The notes beneath the pieces are model-generated. The model was not told where the DNA came from and did not search any database. It was given only the letters and a program-made list of their open reading frames with translations. Position numbers and translations under genes: made by a program. This document shows, in pieces, positions 1-28,160 of a stretch of 64,000 bases of DNA. The DNA lies in the NCBI GenBank assembly GCA_035352635.1, contig DAOPYA010000003.1, positions 21,506-85,505 on the forward strand, in the 5' to 3' direction. Each line of letters starts with the position of its first letter. Position 1 is the first letter of the stretch. Origin of the DNA: Candidatus Rifleibacterium sp. (GTDB lineage: Bacteria > Muiribacteriota > Ozemobacteria > Ozemobacterales > Ozemobacteraceae).

Positions 1-2216
1 TCGTCAGCTCTGAACTTTCGATTATTGCCGCTCTTGGCAATCTATATGGCGAAAACATCGATGCCCTTGCCGACGGTATCGGCGGCGTTCAGGGCAGTGG
101 CGGCGACGATCAGGCCGAACTTGGCGGCATGGATGAAAACGATGCCCCGATCATCAAACTGGTTAATCTGATTCTCACTCAGGCAGTCGTGACCAACGTC
201 TCTGACATTCACATCGAGATCTACGAAAATGAGCTGCGCATCAGATTCAGACAGGATGGCACGATGAAGGTGTTCATGACCCCCGCCAAAGCTGCCCATG
301 CGGGTGTTATCAGCCGCATCAAGGTAATGGCCAGTCTTGACATCGCCGAAACCCGTCGCCCGCAAGATGGTCGCATCAAGCTCAACATGCAGAATCGCAA
401 GATTGACCTGCGTGTTTCCTGCATTCCGTGCGTCTGGGGCGAAAAAGTCGTCATGCGTATCTGCGACCAGGGCAACCTTAAAGTTGACCTTAAAGATCTG
501 GGCTTTGAGCCTTTCGTGCTTGAAAAATACATGGAAGGGGTCGAAAGCGCGAACGGCATCGTGCTGGTAACTGGCCCAACCGGCTCAGGCAAAACCACAA
601 CCCTTTATTCATCGCTGTTTTTGCTCAACAACCCATCGATAAATATCATGACGGCCGAAGACCCGGTTGAGTATAACCTTATGGGCATCAACCAGGTGCA
701 ATGTCATGCTGATATCGGCCTTGATTTTAACGCGGCACTGCGCTCATTTCTGCGCCAGGACCCAGATGTAATCATGCTCGGAGAAATTCGCGACTTCGAA
801 ACCGCCAATATCGCCATCAAAGCAGCGCTTACCGGCCATCTGGTAATTTCAACCCTTCACACCAACGATGCTCCGGCAACGGTTGCCCGCCTGCTCAACA
901 TGGGAATCGAACCCTTCAGTCTGGCTTCTTCGCTGCGAATCGTTCAGGCACAACGCCTGGTTAAAAAAGTTTGCAAAACTTGCGGGGTTGAATTCAAACC
1001 CGACAAAGATCTGCTGCAATCTCTTGGTATCACTGAGCGCCTGTTGCATAAATTGCACCTCGACGACCGTTACACCATGGACAACGTTATGTTCAAACGT
1101 GGCAGCGGTTGCCCAGACTGCGACAACACCGGCCTCAAGGGGCGACAGGGCATTTATGAAGTTCTTTCCATGACCCAGAAATTCCGCGAACTGATCGAAA
1201 GCAGAGCAACCACCGAAGACATGCGGCGCCAGGCACTGATTGACGGCATGCTGTCACTTCGCGAATCGGCTATTTACAAGCTGATCTGCGGCAGCACTTC
1301 TGTCGAAGAAGTCTTCGGCACCACCATCGATGCCGGCGGCCAATCCGAAGAAGATGGTGGCACTCCCAAGCCCAAAATGGCCGAAGCTTCTGCACCAGCC
1401 AAACCCGTGGCCGGCAAGCCCGTTGAGCTCAACCTGCCGATTGGCTCTGCCGGGGGCAATCTCGGTGATCTGTCACGCGAACTGCATGAATTTAACAGCC
1501 TGCTTGCACGAGTTTCGGGCGCAACCCACGGCACAACCGGCATGACTACCATCAGCAATGAAATTCTCAAGAGCAATATTGCGGCCCCACTCGAAGCAAT
1601 CAGGGCGCAGGCCGCCAAAACCGACCAGGCCGACAAAGCTCTGCCAATCATTATGGCCCAGGGCCAGAAAATGGAACACAACGTCAAAAACCTCATAAGC
1701 CATTTTTCTGACTACACGCCAAAACTCGGGGTGCTGCACCTGAATCAGCTCGTCGAACAAGAAATTTTTGCCGGCCTGAAAAATCATGTCATCACTGCCC
1801 GACTGCTCTCGGGTGTTAAAGAAATCGGCAAAAACCTCAAGGTTTCTAAAAATCTGCCCGAGAATCTGCCCGATGTAAAAATCGATGCTGAGGCATTTGC
1901 AACCATTGCTTCAAATATTTTTATCAATGCCCTGATCGGTCTGGGTTCAAAAGGCGGCGAAATAAAAGTTGTGACACGCATCAAGCCCAAAACCACCGAC
2001 CGGGTTGAATTCATAATCTTCGACAGTGGCTCAGGCATACCCGTCGAGCGCCAGGGCGATCTTTTCAAACCATTCGTCGCCAACGGCAAAACTTCGCTGG
2101 GCCTTGGTCTGGCCGTTGCCCAAAAATTAGTCAGACAGCTGAACGGCGAAATAACCATCAGAAGTACCCCGGACACCAGCACCCTGGTGACCGTCGAACT
2201 GCCTGCCGCAGGCTGA
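1..2216 (+). CDS. PilB/GspE-family secretion ATPase, 5'-truncated (frame open to window start), fused to a C-terminal histidine-kinase-like transmitter (DHp + HATPase_c)
   Basis: Frame 3 has no stop codon upstream of the annotated ATG at 129 and the upstream translation still reads as GspE core. Walker A GPTGSGKTTT, Walker B DPDVIMLGEIRD, His-box LVISTLHTNDAP and the tetracysteine motif CKTCG...CPDCDNTG are present. The C-terminal roughly 270 aa carry a putative H-box (RELHEFNSLLARV), N-box (NIFINALIGL), G1 (DSGSGIP) and G2 (GLGLAVAQKLV). Confidence 0.8.
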   Translation, partial: VSSELSIIAALGNLYGENIDALADGIGGVQGSGGDDQAELGGMDENDAPIIKLVNLILTQAVVTNVSDIHIEIYENELRIRFRQDGTMKVFMTPAKAAHAGVISRIKVMASLDIAETRRPQDGRIKLNMQNRKIDLRVSCIPCVWGEKVVMRICDQGNLKVDLKDLGFEPFVLEKYMEGVESANGIVLVTGPTGSGKTTTLYSSLFLLNNPSINIMTAEDPVEYNLMGINQVQCHADIGLDFNAALRSFLRQDPDVIMLGEIRDFETANIAIKAALTGHLVISTLHTNDAPATVARLLNMGIEPFSLASSLRIVQAQRLVKKVCKTCGVEFKPDKDLLQSLGITERLLHKLHLDDRYTMDNVMFKRGSGCPDCDNTGLKGRQGIYEVLSMTQKFRELIESRATTEDMRRQALIDGMLSLRESAIYKLICGSTSVEEVFGTTIDAGGQSEEDGGTPKPKMAEASAPAKPVAGKPVELNLPIGSAGGNLGDLSRELHEFNSLLARVSGATHGTTGMTTISNEILKSNIAAPLEAIRAQAAKTDQADKALPIIMAQGQKMEHNVKNLISHFSDYTPKLGVLHLNQLVEQEIFAGLKNHVITARLLSGVKEIGKNLKVSKNLPENLPDVKIDAEAFATIASNIFINALIGLGSKGGEIKVVTRIKPKTTDRVEFIIFDSGSGIPVERQGDLFKPFVANGKTSLGLGLAVAQKLVRQLNGEITIRSTPDTSTLVTVELPAAG

Positions 2217-2264
2217 GAAGCCCGTCTGGCAGAAAAATCCATAAGCCAGGAGAGGAATAACTTC

Positions 2265-2888
2265 ATGATCATCACCAGGCGCTCATTAACAGGTTGGTTG
2301 CTGGTTGCCATGCTGCTGCTGAATGTGGTCGGCTTTGCCCAGAATGACAATCAGGTGGTTGCAGACCCTGCCCGTACTGACAACCCGGTGGTTGCCATCC
2401 TTGAACCGCAGTTCGGTTCAGTGCTGATTCGAGACCTCGAAGGTTTTCACGAATTCACCTTTTCAGCGCCATTCGACAAGATCGAAACCATCCTTAATCT
2501 TGTGGTAATGCAAGAATGGTATCCGACCTATATTTCGATCAGTTGCCGGCCAGACGAAAAAGCCGCAATCATTATGCGGGCCAGCATCAGCAAAAATGCG
2601 GCTTCCGAACGCTTTGCCATGCTTCAGCAGCTGGTGACACCCGGCCTGCTACCCTGGAAAACCGGCGAACTGAACAATGAATCGCCGGCGGTCACCGCTG
2701 TCGAAACTGATTTTTCGAGCCGGGTTTCGGTTCTTGGGCAGACCTTAAAAAGCGGCCTGATTTTTACCCAGCTTTTTCCGATGTTGCAAAGAGCGCCGGG
2801 CATCAGAGACCCATTCTTTGAACGCGGCAGCTACCGGGATTCTCCATCCGGCCGGCTTATGGAATTTTCGGTCAAATGCAACTGGTAA
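2265..2888 (+). CDS. hypothetical secreted protein (N-terminal signal peptide)
   Basis: 207-aa ORF with a hydrophobic N-terminus (LLVAMLLLNVVGFAQ) and no recognisable motif. It overlaps the rluB start by 13 nt. Confidence 0.4.
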   Translation: MIITRRSLTGWLLVAMLLLNVVGFAQNDNQVVADPARTDNPVVAILEPQFGSVLIRDLEGFHEFTFSAPFDKIETILNLVVMQEWYPTYISISCRPDEKAAIIMRASISKNAASERFAMLQQLVTPGLLPWKTGELNNESPAVTAVETDFSSRVSVLGQTLKSGLIFTQLFPMLQRAPGIRDPFFERGSYRDSPSGRLMEFSVKCNW

Positions 2889-3607
2889 GAATCCAGAAGC
2901 TGCTGGCGAACTGGGGAGCGGCGTCAAGAAGAGCCATTGAGCGACTGATCGATGAAAAAGCCATCAGTACCGACGGCATACCGGTCGAAGGGCAAGGGAC
3001 CCTTGTCGATGCAGACAATCCCCCTGAAATACGCATCAATGGCAAGCTGATCACACCGCCACGCGACAAGGTCTGCCGGGTTTATGCATTTAATAAGCCG
3101 ATGCTGGTCATTACGACTCTCAAAGACGAGCGTGGCCGGCGCACCATAGCCGATTACCTGCCAGTCGGTCAGCGACTCTACCCGGTTGGCCGCCTCGATT
3201 ACGACTCGACCGGTTTGCTGATCATCACCGACCACGGTGAACTGACTAACCGTCTGCTGCACCCTTCTTACAAAGTCGAAAAAGAGTATCTCGTCAAAAT
3301 TACGGGCGCAGAACTGTCTACAGCCGAATTTGCAATGTTTACCAGCGGGTTGCAGCTTGACGACGGCTTGACTCTGCCCTGCCAGCTGAAAAAGCTCGCC
3401 GAACCAGGCACTTATTCGGTTACGATACGAGAAGGGCGAAAACGTCAGGTTCGACGGATGTTCTCATGCCTTGGGCATAAAGTTCTCAGCCTGCACCGCA
3501 CCCGGTTCGGGCCGCTGAGCATCGGCAACCTCAAGGCAGGCGAACTCAGAGAACTCAGCGTAGAAGAAAAAGCAGCCCTGCTGAAATCAGCAGGGCTGCA
3601 TGAATAA
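2876..3607 (+). CDS. rluB: RsuA/RluB-family 16S/23S rRNA pseudouridine synthase (S4 domain + catalytic domain)
   Basis: N-terminal S4-like segment (IQKLLANWGAASRRAIERLIDEKAISTDG). Catalytic motif GRLDYDSTGLLIITDHGELTNRLLHP is typical of RsuA/RluB. Confidence 0.75.
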   Translation: MQLVRIQKLLANWGAASRRAIERLIDEKAISTDGIPVEGQGTLVDADNPPEIRINGKLITPPRDKVCRVYAFNKPMLVITTLKDERGRRTIADYLPVGQRLYPVGRLDYDSTGLLIITDHGELTNRLLHPSYKVEKEYLVKITGAELSTAEFAMFTSGLQLDDGLTLPCQLKKLAEPGTYSVTIREGRKRQVRRMFSCLGHKVLSLHRTRFGPLSIGNLKAGELRELSVEEKAALLKSAGLHE

Positions 3608-3614
3608 CCAGTAA

Positions 3615-4697
3615 TCAGTTCTTCGGGGCGAGCATGGCAGCCTTGATGCGCTTCAGGTGCAAAGACACCCTCGCAGCGGGCAAACCGTTTTTCTGCATGT
3701 TCAGCCACATGGCAGCCGCCTGATACAGGTAACCACTCTTTTCGAGTTTCCAGGCTGCCACGATTGAATCTTCGGCGGTTACGACCACGGCAACCGTCAT
3801 AGAAGCAAGATTACCACCCAGATTAAATGTCGAGGTTGCGGCACCGGTATAGTCAACCGAGAACTCGCACCAGCCATCAACAGGTGAACCGAGACTGAAA
3901 CTGCTCACCCCGGCACCCGAAACATCAAAACTACTTTCTGCGTCACAGATGCCCGTGAATACTTCGGTCGGCATGGCAAAGCAGAGCGGCGCAACAGCAG
4001 GAGCAGGGGCCGCTTTCGCATTGTCAGACTCCTCAGATTTTAAACTTCCGGCCTCAGATGAAGAGGGCGCAGCACCGGCAGTCATCGCACCATTGTCGGG
4101 CATAGATTCTGATTCAGAAGGCTTGTCGGTTTCAAAAGCATCGGCTATTGGTTCGTCAGGCGCTTGCGGCACAGCTATCTCAGGAGTCATGCCAATTTCT
4201 TTGTCGATTTTTTCGTCGATTTCAGCTGATTTATTTAAACCTTCGTCAGAAATCGAAGGCCGTAATTCTTGTTGTCTGGCAGAAGCAGGTGGCGGAGGAG
4301 CTGCTGAAGCTCCCACGATTCTTTCGGGGTTCACCGCTCCGGTCTGGTTGGCCATGTTCTGCCCGAGTGCAAGATCGCTTGAAACGAGCTCAACAGCGCT
4401 GGAGGTAAAATTGCCGCCAACCACTGCGGCCAGTGAAATGGTAGCAGTCGCATCGGCGCTGAAGCGATATTCCTGGTTGGTGGGCAGATGAATCAGCACG
4501 AGCGAGCCATCGGGAGCCACTTTAATTTCGACACCGTCGGGCAGAATTTCTGCAAGCTCGACTTCCCATTTGTCGCCTGCCAGGCTTGCCTGAACAGAAC
4601 CGGTCTTGTCAGTGACCATGGCCACTTCAGCCGCGGCCAGCATGCTGACCGGCAGAATAAAGCAAAACAACAGCACCAGGGATGTGATTCTCGACAT
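3615..4697 (-). CDS. FecR-domain secreted protein (sensor partner of the downstream cyclase)
   Basis: Signal peptide MSRITSLVLLFCFILPVSMLAAA, then a FecR-like beta domain and an acidic Ala/Pro/Ser-rich linker. Start chosen at the internal ATG 4697 with a GGAGG RBS, 1 nt after the cyclase stop. Confidence 0.55.
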   Translation of the reverse strand: MSRITSLVLLFCFILPVSMLAAAEVAMVTDKTGSVQASLAGDKWEVELAEILPDGVEIKVAPDGSLVLIHLPTNQEYRFSADATATISLAAVVGGNFTSSAVELVSSDLALGQNMANQTGAVNPERIVGASAAPPPPASARQQELRPSISDEGLNKSAEIDEKIDKEIGMTPEIAVPQAPDEPIADAFETDKPSESESMPDNGAMTAGAAPSSSEAGSLKSEESDNAKAAPAPAVAPLCFAMPTEVFTGICDAESSFDVSGAGVSSFSLGSPVDGWCEFSVDYTGAATSTFNLGGNLASMTVAVVVTAEDSIVAAWKLEKSGYLYQAAAMWLNMQKNGLPAARVSLHLKRIKAAMLAPKN

Positions 4698-4698
4698 T

Positions 4699-6498
4699 TT
4701 ATGCCTCCAGATTGCTGATGGTATAAAGCTCAACTTCGTTGGCTTTACCACGTAAACTCGTCTTTGCCAGAAATTTCCAGGGAATTTCTGCCTTTGTTGA
4801 TTTTACCACTTCTCCGCTGACGAGCAGAGAAGTTTGATATTCTTTGTTGAGGCTTTCCATGCGCGAGCAGGCGTTAACCGTGTCGCCGATAACCGTAAAT
4901 TCAGCCTTTCGCTCTGAGCCGATATTGCCAAACACCACATTGCCGGCGTGCAGTGCCAGGCCAACTTTTAAGTCTACTCCATAGCAGGTTGCTTTGAATT
5001 CAGGGGAAGCGGTGAAAGCAATAATCTCTCGGGCCGCCTTGACTGCGTCATCTGCATAGTCGGCATGTTCGACCGGCGCGTTGAAAAATGCCAGCAGGCC
5101 ATCACCCAGAAACTTATCTACTACGCCGCGGTTCGCCATAATAATGTCAGTCAGACGGGCAAAGTAGGCATTGAGAAACTGCACAATTTCGGGGGCATCG
5201 CGCTGTTCGCTGAATGAGGTAAAGCCTCTGATATCAGCGATAAGAATACACAATCTTCGGCGCTTGCCCTGCAGAAAATCACGATCATTTGAGGCGAGTA
5301 TTTCTTTGACGACCGAGTCACTGACATAACGGCTGAAAATGGCCCGCACACGCCGCCGGTCGAGATAAATGGCGCGGTAGGCGAGAAATCGCTCAGCGGT
5401 TATGAAGACGGCGAGAAGCAGCAACGGGCGCACCACCGGTATTACCAGGGGGTCGAACCATAAGACCGCCATAATCGGCCAGCCAACAAAGAGCAACGCC
5501 GCGCAGACAAGCGATGCATTACGTTGCCAGCGGGCAATCAGCAGCAGACCGATAAGAAGCGCCACAATCACCATGATCTCGTGCTGCCGTGACATGGGTT
5601 GCAGAAAGCGGTCATTGAGAATGTTATCAAGGATATTGGCGTGTATTTCGACCCCGGGCATATAGTCATAGGGGGTCGCTTTGAAATCTGTGATATCAGT
5701 AAAGCCCAGCAAAACGATTTTCCCGGCAAGATCGTTATTTAATGACCCGCCGGCACGGGCAGACTCAAGCAGACGCCGCACCGGAACTGTTTTTATCGTA
5801 CCGCGCGGGCCACGGTAGCTTATCTGCTGAATCGGGTTGGCGGATAGCGGTTGTTTATAATAACCACTGCGCATGGCGGCAACCATGGCTACGGCATGCA
5901 CAGCCCCGGCAGGCCCGGTTCCGGAAAGCTGAACGTTGCGGATAACGCCGTCGTGTGAGGTTGCCAGATTGAAATACCCGGTGTTTTCTTTTCGGGCAAT
6001 ATGCAGAAGGGTCGGGTCAGAGAAGACGGGTTGGTTTTTTTCCCAGGCGTAGCCGGCGATCAACGATGCCCCTGAAGCGACAAACTCAAGCAGAGCAGTT
6101 CTGAATGGCTTTTCGAAGCCAATTTCGCGAAAAAAGCGGCCGGGCAGATCAAGACCAAGCCGTTCACCCGTTTCGCGCACGTGGTCACGAATAACCGATT
6201 CAGAGCCTGGCGAGAACACCAGGTCGAGCAGCAGGGCCGAAGCCGAAGCCTGGCTGACCGCCCTGGTCAGTTCAGCATAGATCGGGCCCCAGGCAAACAT
6301 CGGCCGACCAGCCCAGGCAAGGGTTTCCTGGTCTATGCCTGCGATGACGATTCTGGAATCAGGCGTCACAGCACCACGCCAGCGAAACTGCATGTCGAGC
6401 ACCCGGTTTTCGGCATCGTCAATCAATCTGAAATCGCCGCCATATATTAACAGCCCAAGAATCAGACAGATTAACCAGGTCAATGCATTCAGTCTCAT
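4699..6498 (-). CDS. CHASE2 sensor domain class III adenylate/guanylate cyclase
   Basis: N-terminal TM, periplasmic CHASE2-like region and three TM helices. The C-terminal CYC domain carries LCILIADIRGFTSFSE...FLGDGLLAFFNAP...GNVVFGNIGS. Confidence 0.85.
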   Translation of the reverse strand: MRLNALTWLICLILGLLIYGGDFRLIDDAENRVLDMQFRWRGAVTPDSRIVIAGIDQETLAWAGRPMFAWGPIYAELTRAVSQASASALLLDLVFSPGSESVIRDHVRETGERLGLDLPGRFFREIGFEKPFRTALLEFVASGASLIAGYAWEKNQPVFSDPTLLHIARKENTGYFNLATSHDGVIRNVQLSGTGPAGAVHAVAMVAAMRSGYYKQPLSANPIQQISYRGPRGTIKTVPVRRLLESARAGGSLNNDLAGKIVLLGFTDITDFKATPYDYMPGVEIHANILDNILNDRFLQPMSRQHEIMVIVALLIGLLLIARWQRNASLVCAALLFVGWPIMAVLWFDPLVIPVVRPLLLLAVFITAERFLAYRAIYLDRRRVRAIFSRYVSDSVVKEILASNDRDFLQGKRRRLCILIADIRGFTSFSEQRDAPEIVQFLNAYFARLTDIIMANRGVVDKFLGDGLLAFFNAPVEHADYADDAVKAAREIIAFTASPEFKATCYGVDLKVGLALHAGNVVFGNIGSERKAEFTVIGDTVNACSRMESLNKEYQTSLLVSGEVVKSTKAEIPWKFLAKTSLRGKANEVELYTISNLEA

Positions 6499-6735
6499 TT
6501 AATATCCTTGCTTTTTGTATTCTTACTCTATCACAATTCAGCGGTCAAAGCATCCACAACTATGCTGATAACGCCCGAAACGGTCGCCGGATTTAGTTTT
6601 TCGGCGGTGCCGGCCAAAATTCAACAAACGGATGACAATTTTGCCGGCGGGGGGTAAAATGAGCGGGTACACTTCAATCCCCGCTTTTGTCAAAGCAACA
6701 TAGACCGATACGACAGACGCACAAGGAGGAAAGGG

Positions 6736-7053
6736 ATGACATCCCTTCGCATTCAGGAACACCCGGTTCTCAGTTTTCCGGAACGCAAACTGGTTAAGTT
6801 TTTCTTCGAAGATCGTGAGTATGAGGGCTATGAAGGCGAACCAATCGCGGCTGCCCTTCATGCTGCCGGGGTTAAGACCCTGCGCCGCAGCCCTCAGAAG
6901 AATCGCGCCCGAGGGTTCTTCTGTGCCATCGGCCGCTGTTCAAGCTGCATAATGGAAGTTGACGGCCAGGTAAATATCATGACCTGTATCACTCCGTTGA
7001 AACCAGGCATGAAGATCCGCATGCAGAAAGGGCACGGTGTCATTCACCCATGA
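6736..7053 (+). CDS. 2Fe-2S ferredoxin-like small subunit of a heteromeric FAD amino-acid dehydrogenase/oxidase (SoxA-N / HcnA-like)
   Basis: Cys cluster FFCAIGRCSSCIMEVDG...MTC, placed as the first gene of the operon. RBS AAGGAGGAAAGGG lies upstream. Confidence 0.55.
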   Translation: MTSLRIQEHPVLSFPERKLVKFFFEDREYEGYEGEPIAAALHAAGVKTLRRSPQKNRARGFFCAIGRCSSCIMEVDGQVNIMTCITPLKPGMKIRMQKGHGVIHP

Positions 7054-8147
7054 GCAGAAAAACAGAAGTTTTTATAATCGGCGGTGGCCCGGCCGGCCTT
7101 TCTGCCGCAACAGTAGCGGCAGAACTGGGTGCCCAGACCCTTCTCGTCGATGACAGTGCCAGGCTTGGCGGTCAGCTGATCAAGCAGACCCATCGGTTCT
7201 TCGGCAGCAGCAATCGCGATGCAGGCATTCGCGGCATAACCATTGCCAACAAACTTTGCGAAGAAGTTAAATCAGCGTCTGACCGGCTGACTGTTCTCGA
7301 GAACACTGCTGCCGTTGGGTTTTACGCCAACAAGGAAGCCGGAATACTTTCTCAAAGTGCTTATGAGCGGGTATCATATCAGGCAGCCATTGTCTGTACC
7401 GGGGCTACCGAGAACAGTCTTGCCTTTGAGAACAATGACCTGCCTGGCATTTATGGTGCTGGCGGCGTGCAAACCCTGATGAATGTCCATGGCATCAAGC
7501 CAGGCCAGAAAATTCTCATGGTTGGCAGCGGTAACATCGGCTTGATCGTCAGTTATCAGTTGATTCAGGCTGGGGTCGAAGTTGTTGGCCTGGTCGAAGG
7601 CATGCCAAACATCGGCGGCTATCTGGTGCATGCCAGCAAAATCCGCCGACTGGGCGTGCCAATCTACACTTCACATACTATCCTGAAAGCCCTAGGCGAG
7701 ACGGGCGTCGGCGGCGCGGTGCTCTGCCGGGTTGACGAAAAATTTCAGGCGGTTCCCAATACTGAATTCGAAGTTAACTGCGACTGTATCTGCCTCGCGG
7801 TTGGCCTGACCCCGCTGATCGACCTGTTTCAACAGGCCCAGTGCCGCATGGTGCATGTCGGCGAACTTGGTGGTCTGGTTCCGCTGCATGATTCAGCCAT
7901 GCGCACAACCAACCATGATATTTTTGTGGCCGGTGATGCCTCGGGCATTGAAGAAGCAACCACCGCGATGCTGGCCGGGCGAATAGCCGGAGCCAAAGCC
8001 TACGAAAGCATTCACGGCAAATCTGTTAAAGCAGAAGCCATTGTTGAAGAAGCCCGCGAAGAATTACGCACCCTCAGGTCAGGCTCAACAGGTGACCGCA
8101 TTCGCTGGGGCCGCGAACGGGTGCTCAAGGAGGCAGGATCATGTTAA
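7050..8147 (+). CDS. FAD/NAD(P)-binding oxidoreductase, alpha-like subunit (HcnB/OoxA/PdhB-like)
   Basis: Dinucleotide-binding motif VFIIGGGPAGLSAA, a second GxGxxG (MVGSGNIGLIV) and FVAGDASG. Start overlaps the upstream stop (ATGA). Confidence 0.75.
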   Translation: MSRKTEVFIIGGGPAGLSAATVAAELGAQTLLVDDSARLGGQLIKQTHRFFGSSNRDAGIRGITIANKLCEEVKSASDRLTVLENTAAVGFYANKEAGILSQSAYERVSYQAAIVCTGATENSLAFENNDLPGIYGAGGVQTLMNVHGIKPGQKILMVGSGNIGLIVSYQLIQAGVEVVGLVEGMPNIGGYLVHASKIRRLGVPIYTSHTILKALGETGVGGAVLCRVDEKFQAVPNTEFEVNCDCICLAVGLTPLIDLFQQAQCRMVHVGELGGLVPLHDSAMRTTNHDIFVAGDASGIEEATTAMLAGRIAGAKAYESIHGKSVKAEAIVEEAREELRTLRSGSTGDRIRWGRERVLKEAGSC

Positions 8148-8626
8148 AAAATACCGGTATCCCTACCGCTGAAGAGTTAAAAAATGTAATGCCACCCCAC
8201 GAAAGACTGGCAAAAGGCCCGGTTGCAATCATAGAGTGCCTCCAGGATATCCCCTGTGACCCATGCGTTTCAGCATGCCCGGTGCATGCTATTCAGATGC
8301 AGTCTGGAATCACCGACCGGCCGCAGCTGAATTTCGATAAATGCACTGGTTGCGGCGCCTGCGTGCCCAAATGCCCTGGCCTGGCCATCTTCATCGTTAA
8401 CATGCAGCATAAAGTCGCCGGCATGGCAACTTTGTCGCTGAGCTACGAACTGCTGCCCATTCCGGCAAAAGACAGCGAAGTTGACGCCCTCGACCGTTCA
8501 GGCAAGTTCCTCTGCCGGGCAAAGGTCATCAGGGTCATCAACCCGCCGGCCTACGACCGAACCGCCGTTGTTACCATTGAAGTTCCCGCCGACCGGATCA
8601 ACGATATCCGTGCCATACGAGTTTGA
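8141..8626 (+). CDS. 2x[4Fe-4S] ferredoxin-like subunit
   Basis: Two Cys clusters: CDPCVSACPVHAI and CTGCGACVPKCPGLAI. Confidence 0.7.
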   Translation: MLKNTGIPTAEELKNVMPPHERLAKGPVAIIECLQDIPCDPCVSACPVHAIQMQSGITDRPQLNFDKCTGCGACVPKCPGLAIFIVNMQHKVAGMATLSLSYELLPIPAKDSEVDALDRSGKFLCRAKVIRVINPPAYDRTAVVTIEVPADRINDIRAIRV

Positions 8627-8640
8627 CAGGGAGAGCCAAC

Positions 8641-8931
8641 ATGAAAATCATCTGCAGATGTATGGATGTAACCGAAGACGAAATCATTGCCGCCATTAGA
8701 CAGGGCGCAACTACCATTGACGAAATCCGAAGACTGGTGAGGGCCGGCATGGGTTCGTGTCAGGGTCGCACCTGTCGCCGCCTGGTTTCGCAGATTATCA
8801 GCCGCGAGCTCAAAACCCCCGCAGCCGAAATTTACCCGCCTACCTTCAGACCACCTAACCGACCGGTTGCGTTTGAGCTGATCAATGCCGAACTCGCCAC
8901 CCACGATCAGGAAAACGGAGAAGGCAAATGA
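8641..8931 (+). CDS. BFD-like [2Fe-2S]-binding domain protein
   Basis: CRCMDVTEDEI...GMGSCQGRTCRRL is a BFD-like motif. Start taken at ATG 8641, which follows a GGGAGAG RBS; the track ORF begins at 8623. Confidence 0.6.
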   Translation: MKIICRCMDVTEDEIIAAIRQGATTIDEIRRLVRAGMGSCQGRTCRRLVSQIISRELKTPAAEIYPPTFRPPNRPVAFELINAELATHDQENGEGK

Positions 8932-10073
8932 ACAGAGCATTTGACGCAGTAATCATTGGGGGCGGCATTCTGGGCGTTTCGACTGCTTATGAACTGGCAC
9001 GCGCCGGTATGACAAAGATCTGCGTTCTTGAAAGAAAATATCTGGCCAGCGGGTCAAGTGGTCGCTGTGGTGGCGGTTTCAGGCAGCAGTGGAGCACTGA
9101 AGCCAACACTACTCTTGCCATGGCCGCAGTAACGCGTCTTGAAGGTCTTGAAGAAGAGCTTGGCTACCGCACTGAATTCTATCAGGGCGGATACCTGATT
9201 CTCGCGCACACCGAAGAAGAAGAGCGGCAGTTTGAGAAAAATGTTGCCATGCAGCGCCGTCTAGGCCTGGAAGTTGACGTGGTCGATCCTGACGAAGCTC
9301 GCAAGATTGTTCCCTTTCTCAATACCGAACTAATTCGCAAGGCCACCTGGTGCCCGAAAGACGGTCATATTAACCCATTTCTGCTGACTCAGGGCTATGC
9401 CAACGCGGCGAAGCGCCTGGGCGCTGAAATACACCTCTGGACCAACGTCACCGGCATCATGAAAAAGAGCAATATCTTCTTCGTGATGACCGAAAATGGC
9501 AACACCTACCAGACTCCGCTGCTGTTCAATTGCGCCGGCGGGTTTTCCCGGGGGATCGGCGAAATGCTGAATGTCGATATTCCGGTTGACCCTTATCGTC
9601 ACGAGATTCTGGTCACCGAACCGGTTGAGCGACTCTGGGACCCGATGGTCATCAGTTTCAGTGTTGGTCTCTACGCGCGCCAGGAAATGAGCGGCGGGGT
9701 GGTCATGGGGATGGGCGACCCGAATGAACCCGTTGGCACCCAGGTTGGCAGTTCAATGCACTTCATGTATGAAATGAGCCGGCGGTTCACCCAGTTGTTT
9801 CCGAAGCTTGATAAAATGCGCATTGTCAGGCAATGGGCGGGGCTGTATGAAATGACAGCAGATGCCCAGCCGATTCTCGGGCCAGTCGCTGATGTTGACA
9901 ACTTTATTCAGGCCAGTGGCTTTTCTGGGCATGGTCTGATGCTTGCGCCTGCTGTCAGCCAACTGCTGGCAGGCATGGTAGTCAGAAAAGAAAAAAGCGA
10001 AGTGATTGACAGCCTGAACGTTAAACGCCTCTACAACCTGAAAGACGTTACCCGCGAAAAATCAGTTGTTTGA
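8928..10073 (+). CDS. FAD-dependent oxidoreductase, DAO family, beta-like subunit (sarcosine oxidase beta / proline dehydrogenase beta / HcnC-like)
   Basis: FDAVIIGGGILGVSTAYELARAG...ERKYLASGSSGRCGGGF...HGLMLAPA. Confidence 0.8.
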   Translation: MNRAFDAVIIGGGILGVSTAYELARAGMTKICVLERKYLASGSSGRCGGGFRQQWSTEANTTLAMAAVTRLEGLEEELGYRTEFYQGGYLILAHTEEEERQFEKNVAMQRRLGLEVDVVDPDEARKIVPFLNTELIRKATWCPKDGHINPFLLTQGYANAAKRLGAEIHLWTNVTGIMKKSNIFFVMTENGNTYQTPLLFNCAGGFSRGIGEMLNVDIPVDPYRHEILVTEPVERLWDPMVISFSVGLYARQEMSGGVVMGMGDPNEPVGTQVGSSMHFMYEMSRRFTQLFPKLDKMRIVRQWAGLYEMTADAQPILGPVADVDNFIQASGFSGHGLMLAPAVSQLLAGMVVRKEKSEVIDSLNVKRLYNLKDVTREKSVV

Positions 10074-10086
10074 CGCCCTGAAATAG

Positions 10087-11805
10087 ATGCTGTCGATGGA
10101 ATATTTATCGAACAGGAAGTTTTGCCGCATGCTAATGACACGAACAGATTGTAAAATAAGAGTTACAGGTCTTCTGTTGCTTGCCGGCCTGATTTTATTC
10201 TGCTCTGATGCATTTGCATCGCGGCAGCGCATGGAACTGGCCGAACCCGATCATTCATCGACGCTTACCGGAGTGCTGGTTGTTGCCCCACTCTTCGAAA
10301 AAACCGGAAACGGCTGGGATCCCTACAAACGGGAGTCACAGGATCCGATTGTCGAGTTGTTCGGCGGTGACGGCAAGATGCTTTCTTATGCCCGCAGCGC
10401 TTTTGCCGAAGGCAAAGACCCTGATTATCTGGTCAAATTCAGACAGGTTGCCGGCAAATATCTGCAGGGCAGCAAAACCATAGAAGATGCCCTGAAAGCC
10501 CGTCAGAAAGCCCGCTGGATAATAAATCGCGAACTCACAAGTGACCCGGGCAGGTCTGAAAAGGCGGCCAAGCCTGATGCCAAGGCCGTTCTTCAGCAGT
10601 GGGTCGAGGAACCGCTGGCTCTGTTGCCGAGAACTCCTATACCCGGCCTTGAATCGACCGGCCCGCATGCAGTACCTCACCCGCTGGCCGTTTACAACGA
10701 TAGAAACGAGTGTGTCGCTTTTGACTCGTTCTTTATCGTAATTGCTGATTCAGAAAGGCACTCGGCTCAGGAAGTGCCCTTCAATGTTGCCAGATCCGTA
10801 GAGAATGACACGCTCGATCTGGTTGTCTGTCATGAAATGGCGCATGGCATCATGTTCGATGCCTATGGCCGGCCGCATAACACCAAGGTTGGCCGTGGCC
10901 CAAGCATTCACGGTCACACGGCCAATCTGATCACCGACCGCGAAAAAGCCTGGCTTGAAGGCTGGGCCGAAGCTTTTGAGGCTTTTTACGGACGCAACCG
11001 CAAGATTACCCGACTCGGCGAATCACATTATGGCATTGCCTCGTTTCTCATTGACCGTCAGGATTCAGTGCGCCGCGACCGCTGGCTATGGCTGACCGGA
11101 AAAGCGAATAAGGCCGCGCAGATGAAAAATGCCGCGCAGATGATGGCCAGCGAAGGCGTTATCGCCGGACTGTTTTTCGATATTCTCTCGAACCGGGCTC
11201 TGGTTTCGCCTTTTGAAAAATCGATCACCGTTATGGTCAGGCGCAACCCCAAAGATTTTGCAGCATTCGTCAATGCCTGGCTGGAACTCTTTCCCGGCGA
11301 CCGCCGCACTATACTGCGTATTGTGCTTGAACATACCAGGTATGCTACTTTCGATCCTTCGGTAACTGCTCTTTACCAGGAATTTTACCGCGTGCGCCGT
11401 GCCCTGCAGACACGCGAAGGCAGCAATAGCGAAGCTCTGGTTGCCGAAAAGGCATATTTAAAAGCCAAAGAAGAAGCTTTCGCCAAGGCTCTTGCCGGCG
11501 CCGACCCCTTTTCCGCGCTCCCCCCCCAACTCTGGATCGGCATCGAAAATCTTACCCGAAAAGACGGCAGGGTAACCCGCATGGCCAGATTGAACATCGA
11601 TCTAAACAGTGTCGATGCATTTCTGCTCGAATACTCAGGCTTGTTTGAAAAACCTCAAATCGCAGAATTTCTGGCAACTCGCGATAAACAGGGATTTTTT
11701 CGCGGCAACCCCATCGAAGTGTTGCGCAGCTTTTTCGGCGCTGAGCGCTGGAAAAACCTGCCCGACGAGGGCGTTAAATTTTACCCCGAACTTCTCCTGC
11801 CTTAG
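10087..11805 (+). CDS. secreted zincin-like putative metallopeptidase (HExxH...EGWAEAFE) with C-terminal ComEA-type helix-hairpin-helix domain; paralog 1
   Basis: Signal peptide LLLLAGLILFCSDAFA; an alternative start at the internal Met 10129 is possible. Motifs are NDTLDLVVCHEMAHGIMFD and EGWAEAFEAFYG. The C-terminus NIDLNSVDAFLLEYSGL...ATRDKQGFFRGNPIE resembles ComEA HhH. It shares long colinear identity with the next gene. Confidence 0.6.
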   Translation: MLSMEYLSNRKFCRMLMTRTDCKIRVTGLLLLAGLILFCSDAFASRQRMELAEPDHSSTLTGVLVVAPLFEKTGNGWDPYKRESQDPIVELFGGDGKMLSYARSAFAEGKDPDYLVKFRQVAGKYLQGSKTIEDALKARQKARWIINRELTSDPGRSEKAAKPDAKAVLQQWVEEPLALLPRTPIPGLESTGPHAVPHPLAVYNDRNECVAFDSFFIVIADSERHSAQEVPFNVARSVENDTLDLVVCHEMAHGIMFDAYGRPHNTKVGRGPSIHGHTANLITDREKAWLEGWAEAFEAFYGRNRKITRLGESHYGIASFLIDRQDSVRRDRWLWLTGKANKAAQMKNAAQMMASEGVIAGLFFDILSNRALVSPFEKSITVMVRRNPKDFAAFVNAWLELFPGDRRTILRIVLEHTRYATFDPSVTALYQEFYRVRRALQTREGSNSEALVAEKAYLKAKEEAFAKALAGADPFSALPPQLWIGIENLTRKDGRVTRMARLNIDLNSVDAFLLEYSGLFEKPQIAEFLATRDKQGFFRGNPIEVLRSFFGAERWKNLPDEGVKFYPELLLP

Positions 11806-11959
11806 CTGGGAAGTAATTACCGATGGGCGCCATGGTTCAAAAAATCTAAACCCGTTCCCCGAAAAATAGCGACGCTATTTTTCGGGCGACGGGGTACCAT
11901 TGACGGTTTCTAATTTTATCAGTAAAATACTAAGATAATCTCATCAGGAGGGCCAGACA

Positions 11960-13735
11960 GTGAAATTTCGCCTTAAAAATGCCTTTGCAGTGCTTCTCAC
12001 CGCCGGAACCATCTATTCAGGAGCAGCTTTCGGCAGAGCGCCGGTTACCAATCTCTCGGGTGACCCTAGCCCGGTTGATGGTTCAATGGTAATCATGCAG
12101 CCAATCACCGTTGGCAAAGGTAACATCGTTGGTGGGCTTATTGGCAAGACCCTCAATATTCCGAAGCAGGTTAAAATCGATGACGCCGGTTATCTGGTTT
12201 TCGCTCTTGCAGCTGATGCCATTCAGGTTAGCCCGGCTGACCCGAAAGGCTACCATGTGGTAACCGCCCTTCCATACCTTACGGGCAGCAAAGAAATGCA
12301 GGATTCTCTCAAACTGAGAAGAACCGCACGCCAGATTCGCTTTCAGGCCCTGAAAGATGCGATCAGCAAAACTGACGCCCTGAATGCCGAACAAAAGAAG
12401 AGTGTTCTGAATTTTCTGTCGCAGTCGGTCGGCACACCCATGGTTGTTTTGTCAAAATCGCCGTTGCCGTCATTCATGCCGTCACCGGGGCCATGCATGA
12501 TTCCGCTTGGCGCCGAAATGGTCGAAAACAAGACTGGCAAGCGCCTTGGCCTTGAAACTTCAATGATCTGTGTTCTCGATATCGAATCAGAAGGCAAAAA
12601 GATTTTCTCGGTCGATGACGCCCTGAAGAACGATACTCTCGACCTGGTGGTTGCCCACGAAAACGGCCATGCCATCATGTTCGACCTCTATGGCAAACTT
12701 TTTCAAAAGATTCAGCGCACTTCTTCGAATGGTCACGATGCCCCGATCATCACTGACGTGGGTCTTGCCTATGTAGAAGGTTGGGCAGAAGCATTCGAAG
12801 CCGTTTATGGGCCTGCAAACCCCAAACTGGCCGAAAAAGACCGCACCAAATACAATATCTCTGAATTCCTTTACAGCCGCCAGGATCCGATCCGCCGCGA
12901 CCGCTATGTCTGGGCCAGCAATACCGGCAAAAAAACCGGCGTAATCAAGAATGGCCTGCAGCTGATGTCAACCGAAGGCGTTCTGGCCGGTTTCTTCTAC
13001 GATATTCTTACCAGCCGCGCCATTAATGCCCCATACGAAAAATGCGTGCAGACGATGCTGACCTCGCCAATGAACTTCATGGAATTCGTCGAAAACTATG
13101 TGAAGCTTTTTCCTGAAGATAAAAAAGTCGTCTACCGCATCATGCTCGAAAATTCTCACTACGTTACCATGCACGAAAATGCCGCCGAAAGTTACAAGAA
13201 TTTCTATGAATTCAAGGTAGCCTACACCCAGAAGAAAATTGACAAAGCCGACTACGACAAGGCCAAAACTCAGTATAAAGCCTATACCGAAGGTCTGTTC
13301 GCCGAAGCCATGAAAACTGACAAGGTTTTTGCCAATGTCGGGCCGCAGATGTGGTTCGCCGGCAAGATCAACCTGACCCAGCTCAAAAAAGAAGCCAGCG
13401 CCGTTAAGAAGTATTTCGCCGCCGCCTTCGGCAAAAAAGACGAATATTACGAATTCAGGCTCGACCTGAATACCGCCACCGCCGACATGTTCAGAATGAT
13501 CGGTTTTGCCGAAGCCGATGCCGCCAAACTGGTTACCGCACGCGACGAAAAAGGCTTCTTCACAGGCAATCCGGTCAGCATCATCAAGCAGACTGTCGGT
13601 GATGAGCGCTTTGCCAAATACAATGCCGTTCTCAATCTGGCTCCTTATGACCACCAGAAAGCCGACGTCATTGCCCAGTATAAAGAACAATCTCTGGCCA
13701 TGTGGCCCGAAGATATTGCCAAACTCGGCAAGTAA
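11960..13735 (+). CDS. secreted zincin-like putative metallopeptidase with C-terminal ComEA-type HhH domain; paralog 2
   Basis: GTG start with an AGGAGG RBS. Signal peptide, NDTLDLVVAHENGHAIMFD, EGWAEAFEAVYG, and C-terminal LDLNTATADMFRMIGFAEADAAKLVTARDEKGFFTGNPV. Confidence 0.6.
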   Translation: MKFRLKNAFAVLLTAGTIYSGAAFGRAPVTNLSGDPSPVDGSMVIMQPITVGKGNIVGGLIGKTLNIPKQVKIDDAGYLVFALAADAIQVSPADPKGYHVVTALPYLTGSKEMQDSLKLRRTARQIRFQALKDAISKTDALNAEQKKSVLNFLSQSVGTPMVVLSKSPLPSFMPSPGPCMIPLGAEMVENKTGKRLGLETSMICVLDIESEGKKIFSVDDALKNDTLDLVVAHENGHAIMFDLYGKLFQKIQRTSSNGHDAPIITDVGLAYVEGWAEAFEAVYGPANPKLAEKDRTKYNISEFLYSRQDPIRRDRYVWASNTGKKTGVIKNGLQLMSTEGVLAGFFYDILTSRAINAPYEKCVQTMLTSPMNFMEFVENYVKLFPEDKKVVYRIMLENSHYVTMHENAAESYKNFYEFKVAYTQKKIDKADYDKAKTQYKAYTEGLFAEAMKTDKVFANVGPQMWFAGKINLTQLKKEASAVKKYFAAAFGKKDEYYEFRLDLNTATADMFRMIGFAEADAAKLVTARDEKGFFTGNPVSIIKQTVGDERFAKYNAVLNLAPYDHQKADVIAQYKEQSLAMWPEDIAKLGK

Positions 13736-25448: not shown

Positions 25449-28160
25449 TCAGTCACCAGCCGGAATAACAGCTGAATCAAGATTGAGGGCTTCGGGTTCT
25501 TCGACGCTATAGGGGTGGAAAACGCCGTTGTATAGTTCTGAATTATCAGATTCAGAGAGGCCCATGTTCATCTGCACATCGTCTTTGATCTTTTCGAAAG
25601 CCAGAATGATTTCTTTGTAGCCTTCGAGTTCGGTGTTCAGGTCGCTCAGAAGGTTTTTCGGATGATAGCCATCTTTGCTGAAGAAGATGAACTTTTTGCG
25701 GGTATCAGAATTTGAATCATCGGCGACTTCAGTGAAGTCTTCGACTTCGTTCATATAGAGATTGGTGAATTTTTCGAGTTCTTCATAGGCCGGGTACAGG
25801 TCTGAGAGCCAGTCAAAGAAGGTTTTGCCCTTCACGTCAAGGAAAGTGCCTTCTTTAAGAAACTTGGCAATATCATAGTTGGTGAATTCTTTGCTGAAGT
25901 CATCCATGGCGGCACGTTTTTCGTCGCCAAGTTCGCGCATCATCACGGCAGTGTCGAGGTTTTTCTTGATGGTGGCTACCATGAGAACCACTTCGGCGGC
26001 TTTCTGGCTAACCGAGATCGGGTCATAGGTCAGAGCTTTTTCGATGTCGGTGAGATAGATCTTGATGATATTTCGCGGGGTTTCTTTGCCATTAGCCTTG
26101 TTCCAGCGCCAGCCGAAAGCTTTCTGGCAATCTTTCATCAGGTCTTTGTGCTCACGTTCAGGGTCAATGTTATAGCATTCAACGAGGCGACCCAGAGCCT
26201 TGCGCATTTTCTGGGAGTATTTGAGGTGCTCGTTGCGGATGAAATCAACCATTTTGTCGCTGTCTTTGATACCGGCCTTGACCTGTTCGCGGGCAGCCTT
26301 GATCTGTTCTTTGAAGAACATCATTTCTTTGACGCCAATCTGGAAGGCATCACTATTGAAGGCCTGGATAAGAAGGTCTTCGTTCCAGGCACCGGTGTCG
26401 ATGCCGACCAGCGGGATGTAATTGAAGGGAGACTGCTCTATGCGCAGACCAACTACGTCAAAGATGCCACCATGATATTTGTTGGCGGTGATCCAGTTCT
26501 GATATTTTTTGATCAGAACGTAGTCAGGGTTAAAGAACACTTTGAGAATATTGTATTCATCGATAGTCTTCTTGTAATCACGTGACTGAATCTTGTCGCC
26601 TGCCCAGCTGACATAGGTCATCGGGTTGATTGCATGACCAACTTTGCCCCAGAAACCGCGGTTTTTGGCCTTTTCAGATTCCACTTCGGTCGGTTTCCAT
26701 GACATGTAGTCGGCTTTCATGGTCCAGAGTTCCTGTAGGCGTTCCATGCCGAAGTCGGGCAGTGAGAAGCCCTTGCGGCTGTAATAGCTCATCAGCACGC
26801 CCTGTTTTTCGAGTTCGGCATAAACACGCAGATTCTTTTCGTGAATTGCTTTCTGTTCTTCGTCTGAAGGGGCCTGACTCTTCACGAAATCGCCGTAGTG
26901 GTTCTCGGTAACAAGCAGAGCTGCAGCCTTTTCTTCGGCTTTCAGCTGCCCGCGGTTATCGTAGAAAGACTTAAATTCAGGGTCGTTTTCGTAGAGATAC
27001 CAGTATGAATTCTTGTAGGCGGCTTTCCAGCGCTTGTTGTATTTGCCGAGCTGGTCACCAAGGGTCGTAACCAGAGCCCACACAAGCGCAATGGCACCGA
27101 TAACCTGCCCGACCACCGGAATACAGAACATGGCGATCAGGGTTGCGGTACCAAGCGCGAGGCCGACATAGTTTTTAACGAGTGAATAAGAGTTGTAGCG
27201 ACCGCCCTGGCGGTCTTCGGACTTGATGATGCCATAAGAATCAAGGGCAATACCGACAACACACAGGCCGATGCCAACGGTGTGGCCCCAACCCTTGGCG
27301 TCGCCAATGACCGTAGCGCCTTTATTGGTGCTGATACCGGCTTTTTTAGCAACTTTGCGATAGGTTTCGACATTTTCGAGACCGGTTTTGCGGGCTACCC
27401 AACGCCAGTATGAATAAAAACCTTCGCCCGGGCCGGCTTTGTAGCCGCATGGAGGTGCCATGTGACTGAGGAAAGTGCCAACATTCTTGGCGCTGAAAGT
27501 TTTCTGGGCTTTGGATGCGAGGTCGCCCATCTTCTGGAAACCGCTCATCAGATTCGCTTTGCGCTGAATGAAGCCAACGCCTTTTTTGTAAAGGCGCGTA
27601 TTTCCGATGGCGTCACCAGTGAATTTGGCGGCGGTTGAAACCTTCTGCATGGCCCATTTGGCACCACGGGCCACACCCGAGTTAGCAACTGCCTGGGTAG
27701 CGGTTTCCATGCCGGCAAGAACTTTGAGAGCCGGCTGCGAGTGAACCAGAAACGAAAATGCCATGGTCGCTTTTGAAGCAGCCATACAAACGGCTTTAAA
27801 ATAGTATGGGGTATTGGTGAAATGAGGCGACATGTCGCTGAGCGTGCTGTAGAAACTGAACACGTCAGTACAACCGTCGTCCATCATGGCGTAGGCACCA
27901 GAAATACTGGTCATCCATTCGCCCCAGGCGATGGCCTCAGCCTCTTCTTTGGTGCGACCACGCAACGAGAGCATGTATTCTAGATAATCAGCGGGCGCGA
28001 CAATTTCGTTGATATCTTCGATGCCCTCAATGCCTTCAGTATTCAGAATCGGCTGCGGAACATCATCGTTAGCAAAAGCCACATTGATGACGAACGGCTC
28101 AAATGCCAGCCAGAAAGCCAGAAAGAATATCAGCAAATTATAACGACCACGAATCTTCAT
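25449..28160 (-). CDS. large orphan membrane protein (903 aa), function unknown
   Basis: N-terminal signal peptide or anchor, two central TM helices (GIGLCVVGIALDSYGII; LALGTATLIAMFCIPVVGQVIGAIALVWALV) and a K/E/D/Y/F/N-rich C-terminal half. No recognisable motif. The gene looks AT-richer than its neighbours by eye. Confidence 0.5.
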   Translation of the reverse strand: MKIRGRYNLLIFFLAFWLAFEPFVINVAFANDDVPQPILNTEGIEGIEDINEIVAPADYLEYMLSLRGRTKEEAEAIAWGEWMTSISGAYAMMDDGCTDVFSFYSTLSDMSPHFTNTPYYFKAVCMAASKATMAFSFLVHSQPALKVLAGMETATQAVANSGVARGAKWAMQKVSTAAKFTGDAIGNTRLYKKGVGFIQRKANLMSGFQKMGDLASKAQKTFSAKNVGTFLSHMAPPCGYKAGPGEGFYSYWRWVARKTGLENVETYRKVAKKAGISTNKGATVIGDAKGWGHTVGIGLCVVGIALDSYGIIKSEDRQGGRYNSYSLVKNYVGLALGTATLIAMFCIPVVGQVIGAIALVWALVTTLGDQLGKYNKRWKAAYKNSYWYLYENDPEFKSFYDNRGQLKAEEKAAALLVTENHYGDFVKSQAPSDEEQKAIHEKNLRVYAELEKQGVLMSYYSRKGFSLPDFGMERLQELWTMKADYMSWKPTEVESEKAKNRGFWGKVGHAINPMTYVSWAGDKIQSRDYKKTIDEYNILKVFFNPDYVLIKKYQNWITANKYHGGIFDVVGLRIEQSPFNYIPLVGIDTGAWNEDLLIQAFNSDAFQIGVKEMMFFKEQIKAAREQVKAGIKDSDKMVDFIRNEHLKYSQKMRKALGRLVECYNIDPEREHKDLMKDCQKAFGWRWNKANGKETPRNIIKIYLTDIEKALTYDPISVSQKAAEVVLMVATIKKNLDTAVMMRELGDEKRAAMDDFSKEFTNYDIAKFLKEGTFLDVKGKTFFDWLSDLYPAYEELEKFTNLYMNEVEDFTEVADDSNSDTRKKFIFFSKDGYHPKNLLSDLNTELEGYKEIILAFEKIKDDVQMNMGLSESDNSELYNGVFHPYSVEEPEALNLDSAVIPAGD

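Follow-up and report, generated by a model that had tools for sequence, protein, structure and literature searches.

The fusion gene at the left edge of a 64,000-nucleotide (nt) stretch of a Candidatus Rifleibacterium sp. genome (the window) joins a PilB/GspE-type secretion ATPase to a module that resembles the core of a sensor histidine kinase. Our preferred interpretation, which we hold with about as much belief as doubt, is that the product is a cytoplasmic, Riflebacteria-specific paralogue of PilB that responds to cyclic di-GMP (c-di-GMP), and that its kinase-like part is a histidine-pseudokinase-type module, serving as a binding or regulatory appendage and not as an ordinary transmitter.

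A PilB paralogue fused to a kinase-like module

Frame 3 of the window is open from position 3 to a TGA at 2214–2216 and encodes the last 737 amino acids (aa) of a 1026-aa protein. The full-length Candidatus Rifleibacterium sp. sequence (P0001) is 100% identical to the window open reading frame (ORF) over residues 290–1026 and supplies the missing 289 residues, confirming the 5' truncation at the window edge that a first-pass annotation of this DNA had proposed. Pfam matched the window ORF to T2SSE at aa 45–438 (E = 3.5e-131) and to HATPase_c at aa 628–735 (E = 5.8e-17), and found no receiver domain (REC) in the fusion protein; the annotation was thus right that the two halves are covalently joined, in a single ORF, with no receiver in the same protein. 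From its N-terminus, the full-length protein consists of an extra T2SSE_N-like domain (about residues 1–165), an MshEN domain, a complete PilB/GspE ATPase, a flexible linker (the Ala/Pro-rich linker of the annotation, which is present), a DHp-like hairpin and HATPase_c. In NCBIfam the window ORF ranks PilB first and GspE second, and its tail leads to the sensor kinases AtoS, ZraS and NtrB.

A search of 5.8 billion proteins returned roughly 100 protein clusters that share the three-domain Pfam architecture, down to 42% identity. All named clusters with the fusion are from Riflebacteria or Ozemobacteraceae, and the next matches are ordinary PilBs of 573–576 aa. Using a pattern specific to the C-terminal module and one genome per GTDB species, we recovered 38 loci that carry the fusion, with titles that read Riflebacteria, Ozemobacteraceae or 'uncultured bacterium' and, for three metagenome-assembled genomes (MAGs), odd labels. 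The same architecture is present in independent assemblies from NCBI, JGI, ENA and Logan. From the codons of 31 full-length genes, compared in 43 pairs of 80–97% identity (dS is about 1, and the values are approximate), we obtained ratios of nonsynonymous to synonymous substitution (dN/dS) of 0.048 for the ATPase, 0.057 for MshEN, 0.060 for the CA domain that holds the ATP site of the kinase-like module, and 0.081 for the DHp. The ratio rises to 0.174 in the helix with His784 (numbered, like all residues below unless stated, by the full-length protein) plus its loop, and to 0.292 in the linker, the highest of the gene.

Because the fusion occurs so widely and is under purifying selection, we conclude that it is real, old and functional in both halves. 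The possibility that a mis-assembly or a frameshift joined separate pilB and kinase genes, an outcome that the first-pass annotation had named as fatal to its claim, is vanishingly small. The reading frame is continuous, independent assemblies agree, both halves are under purifying selection, and the recurrence of the fusion in about 100 clusters and in 38 species genomes with conserved synteny excludes a frameshift or a chimeric assembly. The three oddly labelled MAGs are assigned to 'Candidatus Avigastranaerophilus sp.' or 'Erysipelotrichia bacterium' (L023 and L024, JAZRWI01 and JAZUDR01; L026, SABV01). Their synteny is that of Riflebacteria, with the gene order of L023 and L024 matching that of rumen Riflebacteria MAGs, which suggests mislabelled or contaminated bins.

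The motor half has every element of a GspE/PilB ATPase core. The Walker A and B motifs, the Asp and His boxes and the tetracysteine are all located as the first-pass annotation described and are invariant in 95 full-length family members, the set from which all conservation columns given here were taken. The invariant residues include D542, P543, G549, E550, I551, R552 and D553 of Walker B and the cysteines C613, C616, C659 and C662, which are typical of the PilB/GspE branch and not of PilT. Against the PilB equivalog TIGR02538 the full-length fusion scores 666.8 bits, just below the cut-off of 675.65, with residues 170–730 covering model positions 2–562 of 564. Upstream of the window, residues 169–221 (53 residues) match the MshEN c-di-GMP motif NF053729 with 57.7 bits against a cut-off of 38. 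As given in the MshEN literature, this motif is RLGxx(L/V/I)(L/V/I)xxG(L/V/I)(L/V/I)xxxxLxxxLxxQ, in tandem with a 5-residue spacer. By our reading motif II of the fusion is perfect and motif I is off at two positions (Gly10 to Lys and Gln24 to Ala). Judged by its sequence, the MshEN domain is a predicted c-di-GMP receptor.

Known assembly ATPases that bear MshEN are Vibrio cholerae MshE, Myxococcus xanthus PilB and Clostridium perfringens PilB2 (PMC5013675, PMC11656802). Like MshE and PilB, the fusion aligns nearly end to end with the PilB model, keeps the Walker, Asp and His boxes and the tetracysteine invariant, and has a c-di-GMP motif above the cut-off; its closest non-fused relatives are the PilBs of 573–576 aa, which are about 60% identical to it. 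Unlike them, it has about 165 extra aa at the N-terminus and a linker-DHp/CA tail of about 295 aa at the C-terminus, its motif I deviates, and its gene does not stand beside pilT, pilC or pilMNOPQ and co-exists with a canonical cluster. The MshEN fusions named in the text of the MshEN survey are with CheA, REC, HD-GYP, CheX, cyclases and Ser/Thr kinases, and no PilB-ATPase/kinase fusion appears there.

No T2SSF, PilT or secretin gene was found within about 10 kb of the fusion in five loci (L001–L005), no pilC, pilT, pilM–Q or pilin gene lies near it, and the window holds no second T2SSE. One MAG, GCA_042576865.1, encodes both the most divergent fusion (P0105) and a canonical 574-aa PilB whose gene is followed by pilT and pilC (P0110). 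Since this canonical pilB-pilT-pilC set lies elsewhere in the genome and the PilB parts of P0105 and P0110 are 51% identical, we regard the fusion as an additional, old paralogue. Given a canonical set elsewhere in at least one genome, the fusion would be an accessory or regulatory motor and not the main pilus extension ATPase. Among canonical PilBs the closest (P0106) is encoded in L007/L008 at 1666–12082, on a contig where a secretin gene, a further T2SSE/T2SSF pair and an integrase-like gene are followed by pilB-pilT-pilC.

Fold of the module and its phospho-acceptor position

An AlphaFold2 (AF2) model of the last 255 residues (pLDDT 84, pTM 0.79) comprises a low-confidence helix (model residues 4–24, helix 0 hereafter), a disordered loop, a helical hairpin (37–55 and 58–86) and an alpha/beta domain. 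In Foldseek the model matched the cores of ZraS, DivL, HK853, WalK, KinB and RetS (E = 1e-14 to 1e-12, TM scores 0.55–0.68), and a profile search of PDB sequences returned the cytoplasmic domain of ZraS at the top (E = 2.1e-23). Model and fold matches together place a DHp hairpin before a CA domain. The GHKL domain with N, G1 and G2 boxes that the first-pass annotation had seen is PF02518 (the HATPase_c match above), and each box was located. Six CA residues are invariant (N931, D963, G965, G967, F980 and L990) and five more are kept in at least 90% of members (N927, F977, G989, G991 and L992); as we read the alignment with ZraS, the fusion has Ser or Thr in place of the first G2-box Gly. By sequence and predicted structure, the module is a class-I histidine-kinase core of the NtrB/ZraS/AtoS type. 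An RsbW/SpoIIAB-type GHKL domain, the other outcome that would have undone the earlier claim, was rejected: down to E ≤ 1 only PF02518 matched, with no HATPase_c_2, and sensor kinases that have a DHp lead both the sequence and the fold matches.

A profile of the module run against 1.84 billion representative proteins gave seven matches above 217 bits, all of them family members or fragments, after which scores drop to 170 bits, the level of generic multi-domain kinases. Among the best 150 matches, none of 33 generic kinases of similar size carries T2SSE, a comparison of low power. Because of this gap in score and the lack of T2SSE among the generic matches, the module is, on sequence grounds, a separate lineage (its own clade) of NtrB/ZraS-type cores, known only in the fusion.

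The first-pass annotation had expected HisKA as well as HATPase_c in the tail. The second was found, and HisKA gave no match to the window ORF even at E ≤ 1. The acceptor position was instead located by alignment. In the PDB profile search, 'HEIRNPLSSIK' of ZraS aligns with 'xNIA[AD]PLxxIx' of the family, and when a rebuilt profile was compared with eight bona fide kinases, the His of their 'AHE[IL]xNPL' fell at the same position in six. This acceptor-His position is Ser813 in the full-length protein (window aa 524). Across the family the column holds Ser 36 times, Gln and Lys 16 times each, Ala 8 times, and Asn and His 7 times each. The column after it, normally a catalytic Glu or Asp, is Asn in 84/95 members, and the H+4 column is Ala or Asp, the normal Thr/Asn being gone. 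Because the flanking residues K812, I815, P818, L819 and I822 are conserved, we consider the H-box alignment secure. No His after residue 740 is invariant (the best are H884 in 82, H784 in 69 and H856 in 53 of the 95), and neither is any Ser, Thr or Tyr in the DHp. Helix 2 of the DHp begins with strongly conserved polar residues (Q842, Q844, K845, N849 and N852), and this face, which by our structural reading corresponds to the site where regulators dock in kinases, may be the likeliest docking surface.

Compared with NtrB, ZraS and AtoS, the fusion keeps the N box NxxxNAL and the G1, F and G2 boxes, and its xNIxxPLxxI lines up with their HEIRNPLxxI. Unlike them, it lacks the acceptor His, the adjacent Glu/Asp and the H+4 Thr/Asn; its DHp helix 1 is short and is split from the upstream helix by a variable loop; its only possible sensor is the PilB motor; and no response regulator is adjacent. 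Loss of the His may not be rare in cores of this NtrB-like type: P0253, a membrane sensor kinase unrelated to the fusion, reads 'VQEIRNPL' and has Gln where the His would stand.

Possible roles of the module

On our preferred interpretation, the module would operate outside any classical His-Asp relay, as a DivL-like histidine pseudokinase. Tethered flexibly to each protomer of the PilB hexamer, it could serve as a platform that binds nucleotide and dimerises, thereby pairing adjacent protomers, and it would connect the motor with a partner through binding and not phosphotransfer. Candidates for this partner would be the conserved TPR protein whose gene lies just upstream, a second kinase, or a response regulator in its phosphorylated form. 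A single polypeptide would then bring together the c-di-GMP input through MshEN, the motor cycle powered by ATP and a surface for two-component-type interactions. The first-pass annotation had suggested that the fusion links motor state to phosphorelay signalling; the coupling is plausible, but a classical His-Asp relay is not probable, as there is no canonical acceptor His. Nor did the cognate response regulator that it proposed to look for nearby turn up: a phmmer search with CheY gave one REC match, which is not conserved, in 470 ORFs of 39 loci (the 38 GTDB loci and L001, the locus that holds the window gene and its upstream neighbours). The only REC in the window lies inside a hybrid kinase 38 kb from the fusion, though an orphan regulator may be encoded elsewhere.

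Two histidine pseudokinases offer the nearest parallels. DivL of Caulobacter keeps the N, G1, F and G2 boxes, has no His, is inactive, and senses a phosphorylated regulator through its DHp (PMC4211667). In PsmA of Streptomyces the residue at the His position varies among orthologues and the E/DxxT/N phosphatase motif is absent (PMC12963549). Like both, the fusion has a kinase core without a phosphorylatable His that is conserved across a lineage, with DivL among its top fold matches; like PsmA, it varies at the His position and has lost E/DxxT/N. Unlike either, it is joined to a secretion or pilus motor and not to PAS domains, and its ATP site is more strictly conserved than that of PsmA. Histidine pseudokinases are a functional class, not a homologous family.

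Several points weigh against this interpretation. DivL binds ATP weakly despite its kept boxes (PMC4211667), and the ATP site of PsmA has decayed, as in typical pseudokinases (PMC12963549). In the fusion the ATP-binding residues are (nearly) invariant and strongly constrained, a sequence pattern which argues that nucleotide binding or catalysis may still matter. The H-E-x-x-S motif around His784 in the clade of this window could mark a non-canonical acceptor site. For the partner there are candidates only, the dimerisation of the DHp on a hexamer is something we infer, and the support for a pseudokinase role is wholly computational. Because the strict conservation of the ATP site is what fits a pseudokinase least, we kept two rivals.

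One rival, which we think unlikely, is that the protein is a genuine, unorthodox histidine kinase in the Rifleibacterium-type clade, in which CA phosphorylates His784 and the phosphate passes to an orphan regulator encoded elsewhere, the kinase being gated by the state of the motor or of c-di-GMP. This comes closest to the first-pass annotation, which had taken RELHEFNSLL as the H-box of a working transmitter. The ATP site of CA is intact, and the H-E-x-x-S/T/N around His784 ('ELHEFNS', window aa 495) is similar to the H-E/D-x-x-T/N of HisKA. The His occurs in 69/95 members and in nearly all members with at least 65% identity to the window protein; H-E-x-x-S is exact in 57/95 and well kept in the clade of this window; and Glu785 tends to go with the His, with 'QA' for 'HE' in the Ozemobacteraceae-like branch. 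However, 26/95 members have no His there. In the Ozemobacteraceae-like branch (≤62% identity) it is kept in 4/21, the rest having mostly Gln, Glu, Lys, Leu or Ser, often with Ala for Glu785, and Arg, Ser or Gln replaces it sporadically even within the His-bearing clade (P0022, P0058, P0060, P0061/62 and P0070). His784 also lies on helix 0, whose counterpart by alignment in a real kinase (P0261) is the coiled-coil linker ahead of the DHp, and which a Gly/Ser/Thr loop of variable length separates from the DHp of the fusion; dN/dS of the segment is 0.17. The usual distance from acceptor His to N-box Asn is about 100–125 residues (104 in EnvZ, 120 in HK853). It is 118 from Ser813 and 147 from His784, which is 29 residues upstream of the canonical position. 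In addition, HisKA is silent in Pfam and a cognate regulator is not adjacent. Alignment, spacing and conservation rule out RELHEF as a canonical H-box, and because of the upstream helix, the patchy conservation and the long spacing we do not accept His784 as the phospho-acceptor of the family.

The other rival keeps CA as an active kinase or ATPase and moves the target away from a DHp histidine, to a Ser, Thr or Tyr of the PilB core, to the TPR protein or to another partner, or has ATP hydrolysis act as a timer. The GHKL protein kinases PDK/BCKDK, SpoIIAB and RsbW are a model for such non-histidine phosphorylation. It would account for ATP boxes that are (nearly) invariant, with a dN/dS of 0.06, yet without a conserved His, and a gene for a potential TPR partner is always adjacent. 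Sequence and fold are nevertheless closest to class-I sensor kinases and not to RsbW/SpoIIAB, PF02518 being the only match, and no Ser, Thr or Tyr of the DHp is invariant. DivL, moreover, keeps all boxes and is still inactive (PMC4211667). We consider this rival rather improbable.

A more elaborate proposal, which we advance tentatively and with clearly more doubt than confidence, is a motor-coupled device: a c-di-GMP-binding PilB hexamer bearing three His-less, ATP-competent DHp/CA dimers, which would either read a phosphorylated regulator (DivL-like reverse signalling) or phosphorylate an acceptor that is not a histidine or is in trans, depending on the nucleotide state of the motor. If this is true, the 'Rosetta stone' fusion predicts direct contacts between PilB and kinases in bacteria that encode them separately.

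The wiring of pilus and secretion motors to signalling is only partly understood, with c-di-GMP binding by MshEN, the docking of regulators and the role of Myxococcus PilB standing as separate observations. Two reports describe PilB signalling in the regulation of exopolysaccharide in M. xanthus (PMC5544727) and cyanobacterial response regulators that dock on PilB (bioRxiv 10.1101/2021.06.11.447907); in both, the partners of PilB are separate proteins, whereas in the fusion a two-component-type module is covalently attached. A c-di-GMP receptor, a motor and a two-component-type module in one polypeptide, conserved across a candidate phylum, are natural evidence that the three act jointly. In the literature that we found on PilB, MshEN, Riflebacteria pili and pseudokinases there is no description of a PilB/GspE-kinase fusion; PilB, the kinase core and the pseudokinase concept are each known, and their combination here appears undescribed. 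The fusion is, however, made of two well-known building blocks, comes from organisms that have not been cultured, and has a mechanism that we infer. The compact fusion protein opens the coupling of motor and signalling to study in vitro, and a His-less kinase core with a strictly conserved ATP site bears on the role of bacterial pseudokinases.

Neighbourhood of the fusion gene

Gene content around the fusion was counted by searching the 38 loci with the L001 proteins in tblastn; features of the window are collected in Table 1. The gene upstream encodes a 472-aa TPR protein without a signal peptide and was found in 33/38 loci, which is every locus that reaches far enough; the gap between it and the fusion gene is 11 nt in L001. 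Upstream of it, in divergent orientation, is a gene for a single-ring AAA+ protein (31/38 loci, 77–97% identical). This neighbour (L001 7022–8470, minus strand, 482 aa, just upstream of the window) is the most conserved gene of the neighbourhood, and the resemblance of its product to ClpB/ClpA is confined to their second nucleotide-binding domain (positions 551–845 of NCBIfam ClpB).

Table 1. Features of the window discussed in the text (nt positions; ORF, the fusion reading frame)
Feature	Position	Strand	Basis or remark
PilB-paralogue/kinase-like fusion gene	3–2216	+	C-terminal 737 codons plus stop; first 289 codons upstream of the window
GspE/PilB-type secretion ATPase (N2 + C-terminal ATPase domain)	135–1316	+	Pfam T2SSE PF00437
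Walker A GPTGSGKT	573–596	+	invariant in the 95 family members
Asp box	648–671	+	motif located in ORF
Walker B region DPDVIMLGEIRD, with catalytic Glu	759–794	+	motif located in ORF
His box TGHLVISTLHTNDA	831–872	+	H568 and H575 invariant in the 95 members
Tetracysteine (zinc) motif CKTC ... CPDC	972–1121	+	CxxC pairs at 972–983 and 1110–1121
Flexible Ala/Pro/Gly/Glu-rich linker, ~45 aa	1326–1460	+	length and sequence differ among members
Helix 0 with RELHEFNSLL (1476–1505), His at 1485–1487	1461–1523	+	AF2 low-confidence helix
DHp-like helical hairpin	1554–1745	+	AF2 helices, alignments to ZraS and kinases, column statistics
Degenerate H-box LKSNIAAPLEAI	1566–1601	+	Ser at 1572–1574 holds the phospho-acceptor position
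CA (GHKL) domain	1773–2213	+	Pfam HATPase_c PF02518
N box; G1; F box; G2	1908–1940; 2019–2042; 2061–2075; 2094–2114	+	within the CA domain
Downstream gene, 207 aa	2265–2888	+	48-nt gap after the fusion; 35/38 loci
RluB/RsuA-type pseudouridine synthase	2876–3607	+	Pfam S4 + PseudoU_synth_2, NCBIfam TIGR00093
Hypothetical gene, downstream of the CHASE2-cyclase	3615–4751	-	16/38 loci
CHASE2 receptor fused to class III nucleotide cyclase	4699–6498	-	Pfam CHASE2 + Guanylate_cyc; 20/38 loci
Hybrid sensor kinase, 1596 aa	40932–45722	+	phosphonate-binding-type domain, PAS, HisKA, HATPase_c, REC, Hpt

The 207-aa protein encoded downstream starts with a hydrophobic helix or a signal peptide, and its confident AF2 model (pLDDT 89) shows four alpha-beta-beta units. 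It matched nothing in Pfam or NCBIfam and no PDB fold at E < 0.001 in Foldseek, and homologue searches with it returned 12–13 close relatives. Across loci its size ranges from 191 to 655 aa around a conserved C-terminal domain, the Ozemobacteraceae versions (360–655 aa) having added units of a similar kind. A PilN/PilO/GspM-like topology was an impression only and found no support. The pseudouridine synthase gene overlaps the 207-aa gene by 13 nt, is present in 34/38 loci and closes the conserved block on the plus strand. The 207-aa gene is probably co-transcribed with the fusion. Spacing is the one ground for an operon (the short gaps of 11 and 48 nt and the 13-nt overlap), and a scan of the cassette for promoters and terminators gave counts not above shuffled expectation.

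Convergent with the cassette are the CHASE2-cyclase gene and its hypothetical companion, which place a cyclic-mononucleotide sensor beside a motor with a c-di-GMP motif. The phosphonate-binding-type domain of the distant 1596-aa hybrid kinase is periplasmic. ORFs of 572, 591 and 903 aa, at 10087–11805 (+), 11960–13735 (+) and 25449–28160 (-), have no Pfam match at the thresholds used. At 6736–10073 (+) the window carries a set comprising Fer2_4, Pyr_redox_2, a 4Fe-4S ferredoxin, Fer2_BFD/SO_alpha_A3 and a DAO-type oxidase, which by our reading resembles a heteromeric sarcosine/opine-oxidase or an HcnABC-like dehydrogenase and which follows the cassette in many Rifleibacterium-type loci.

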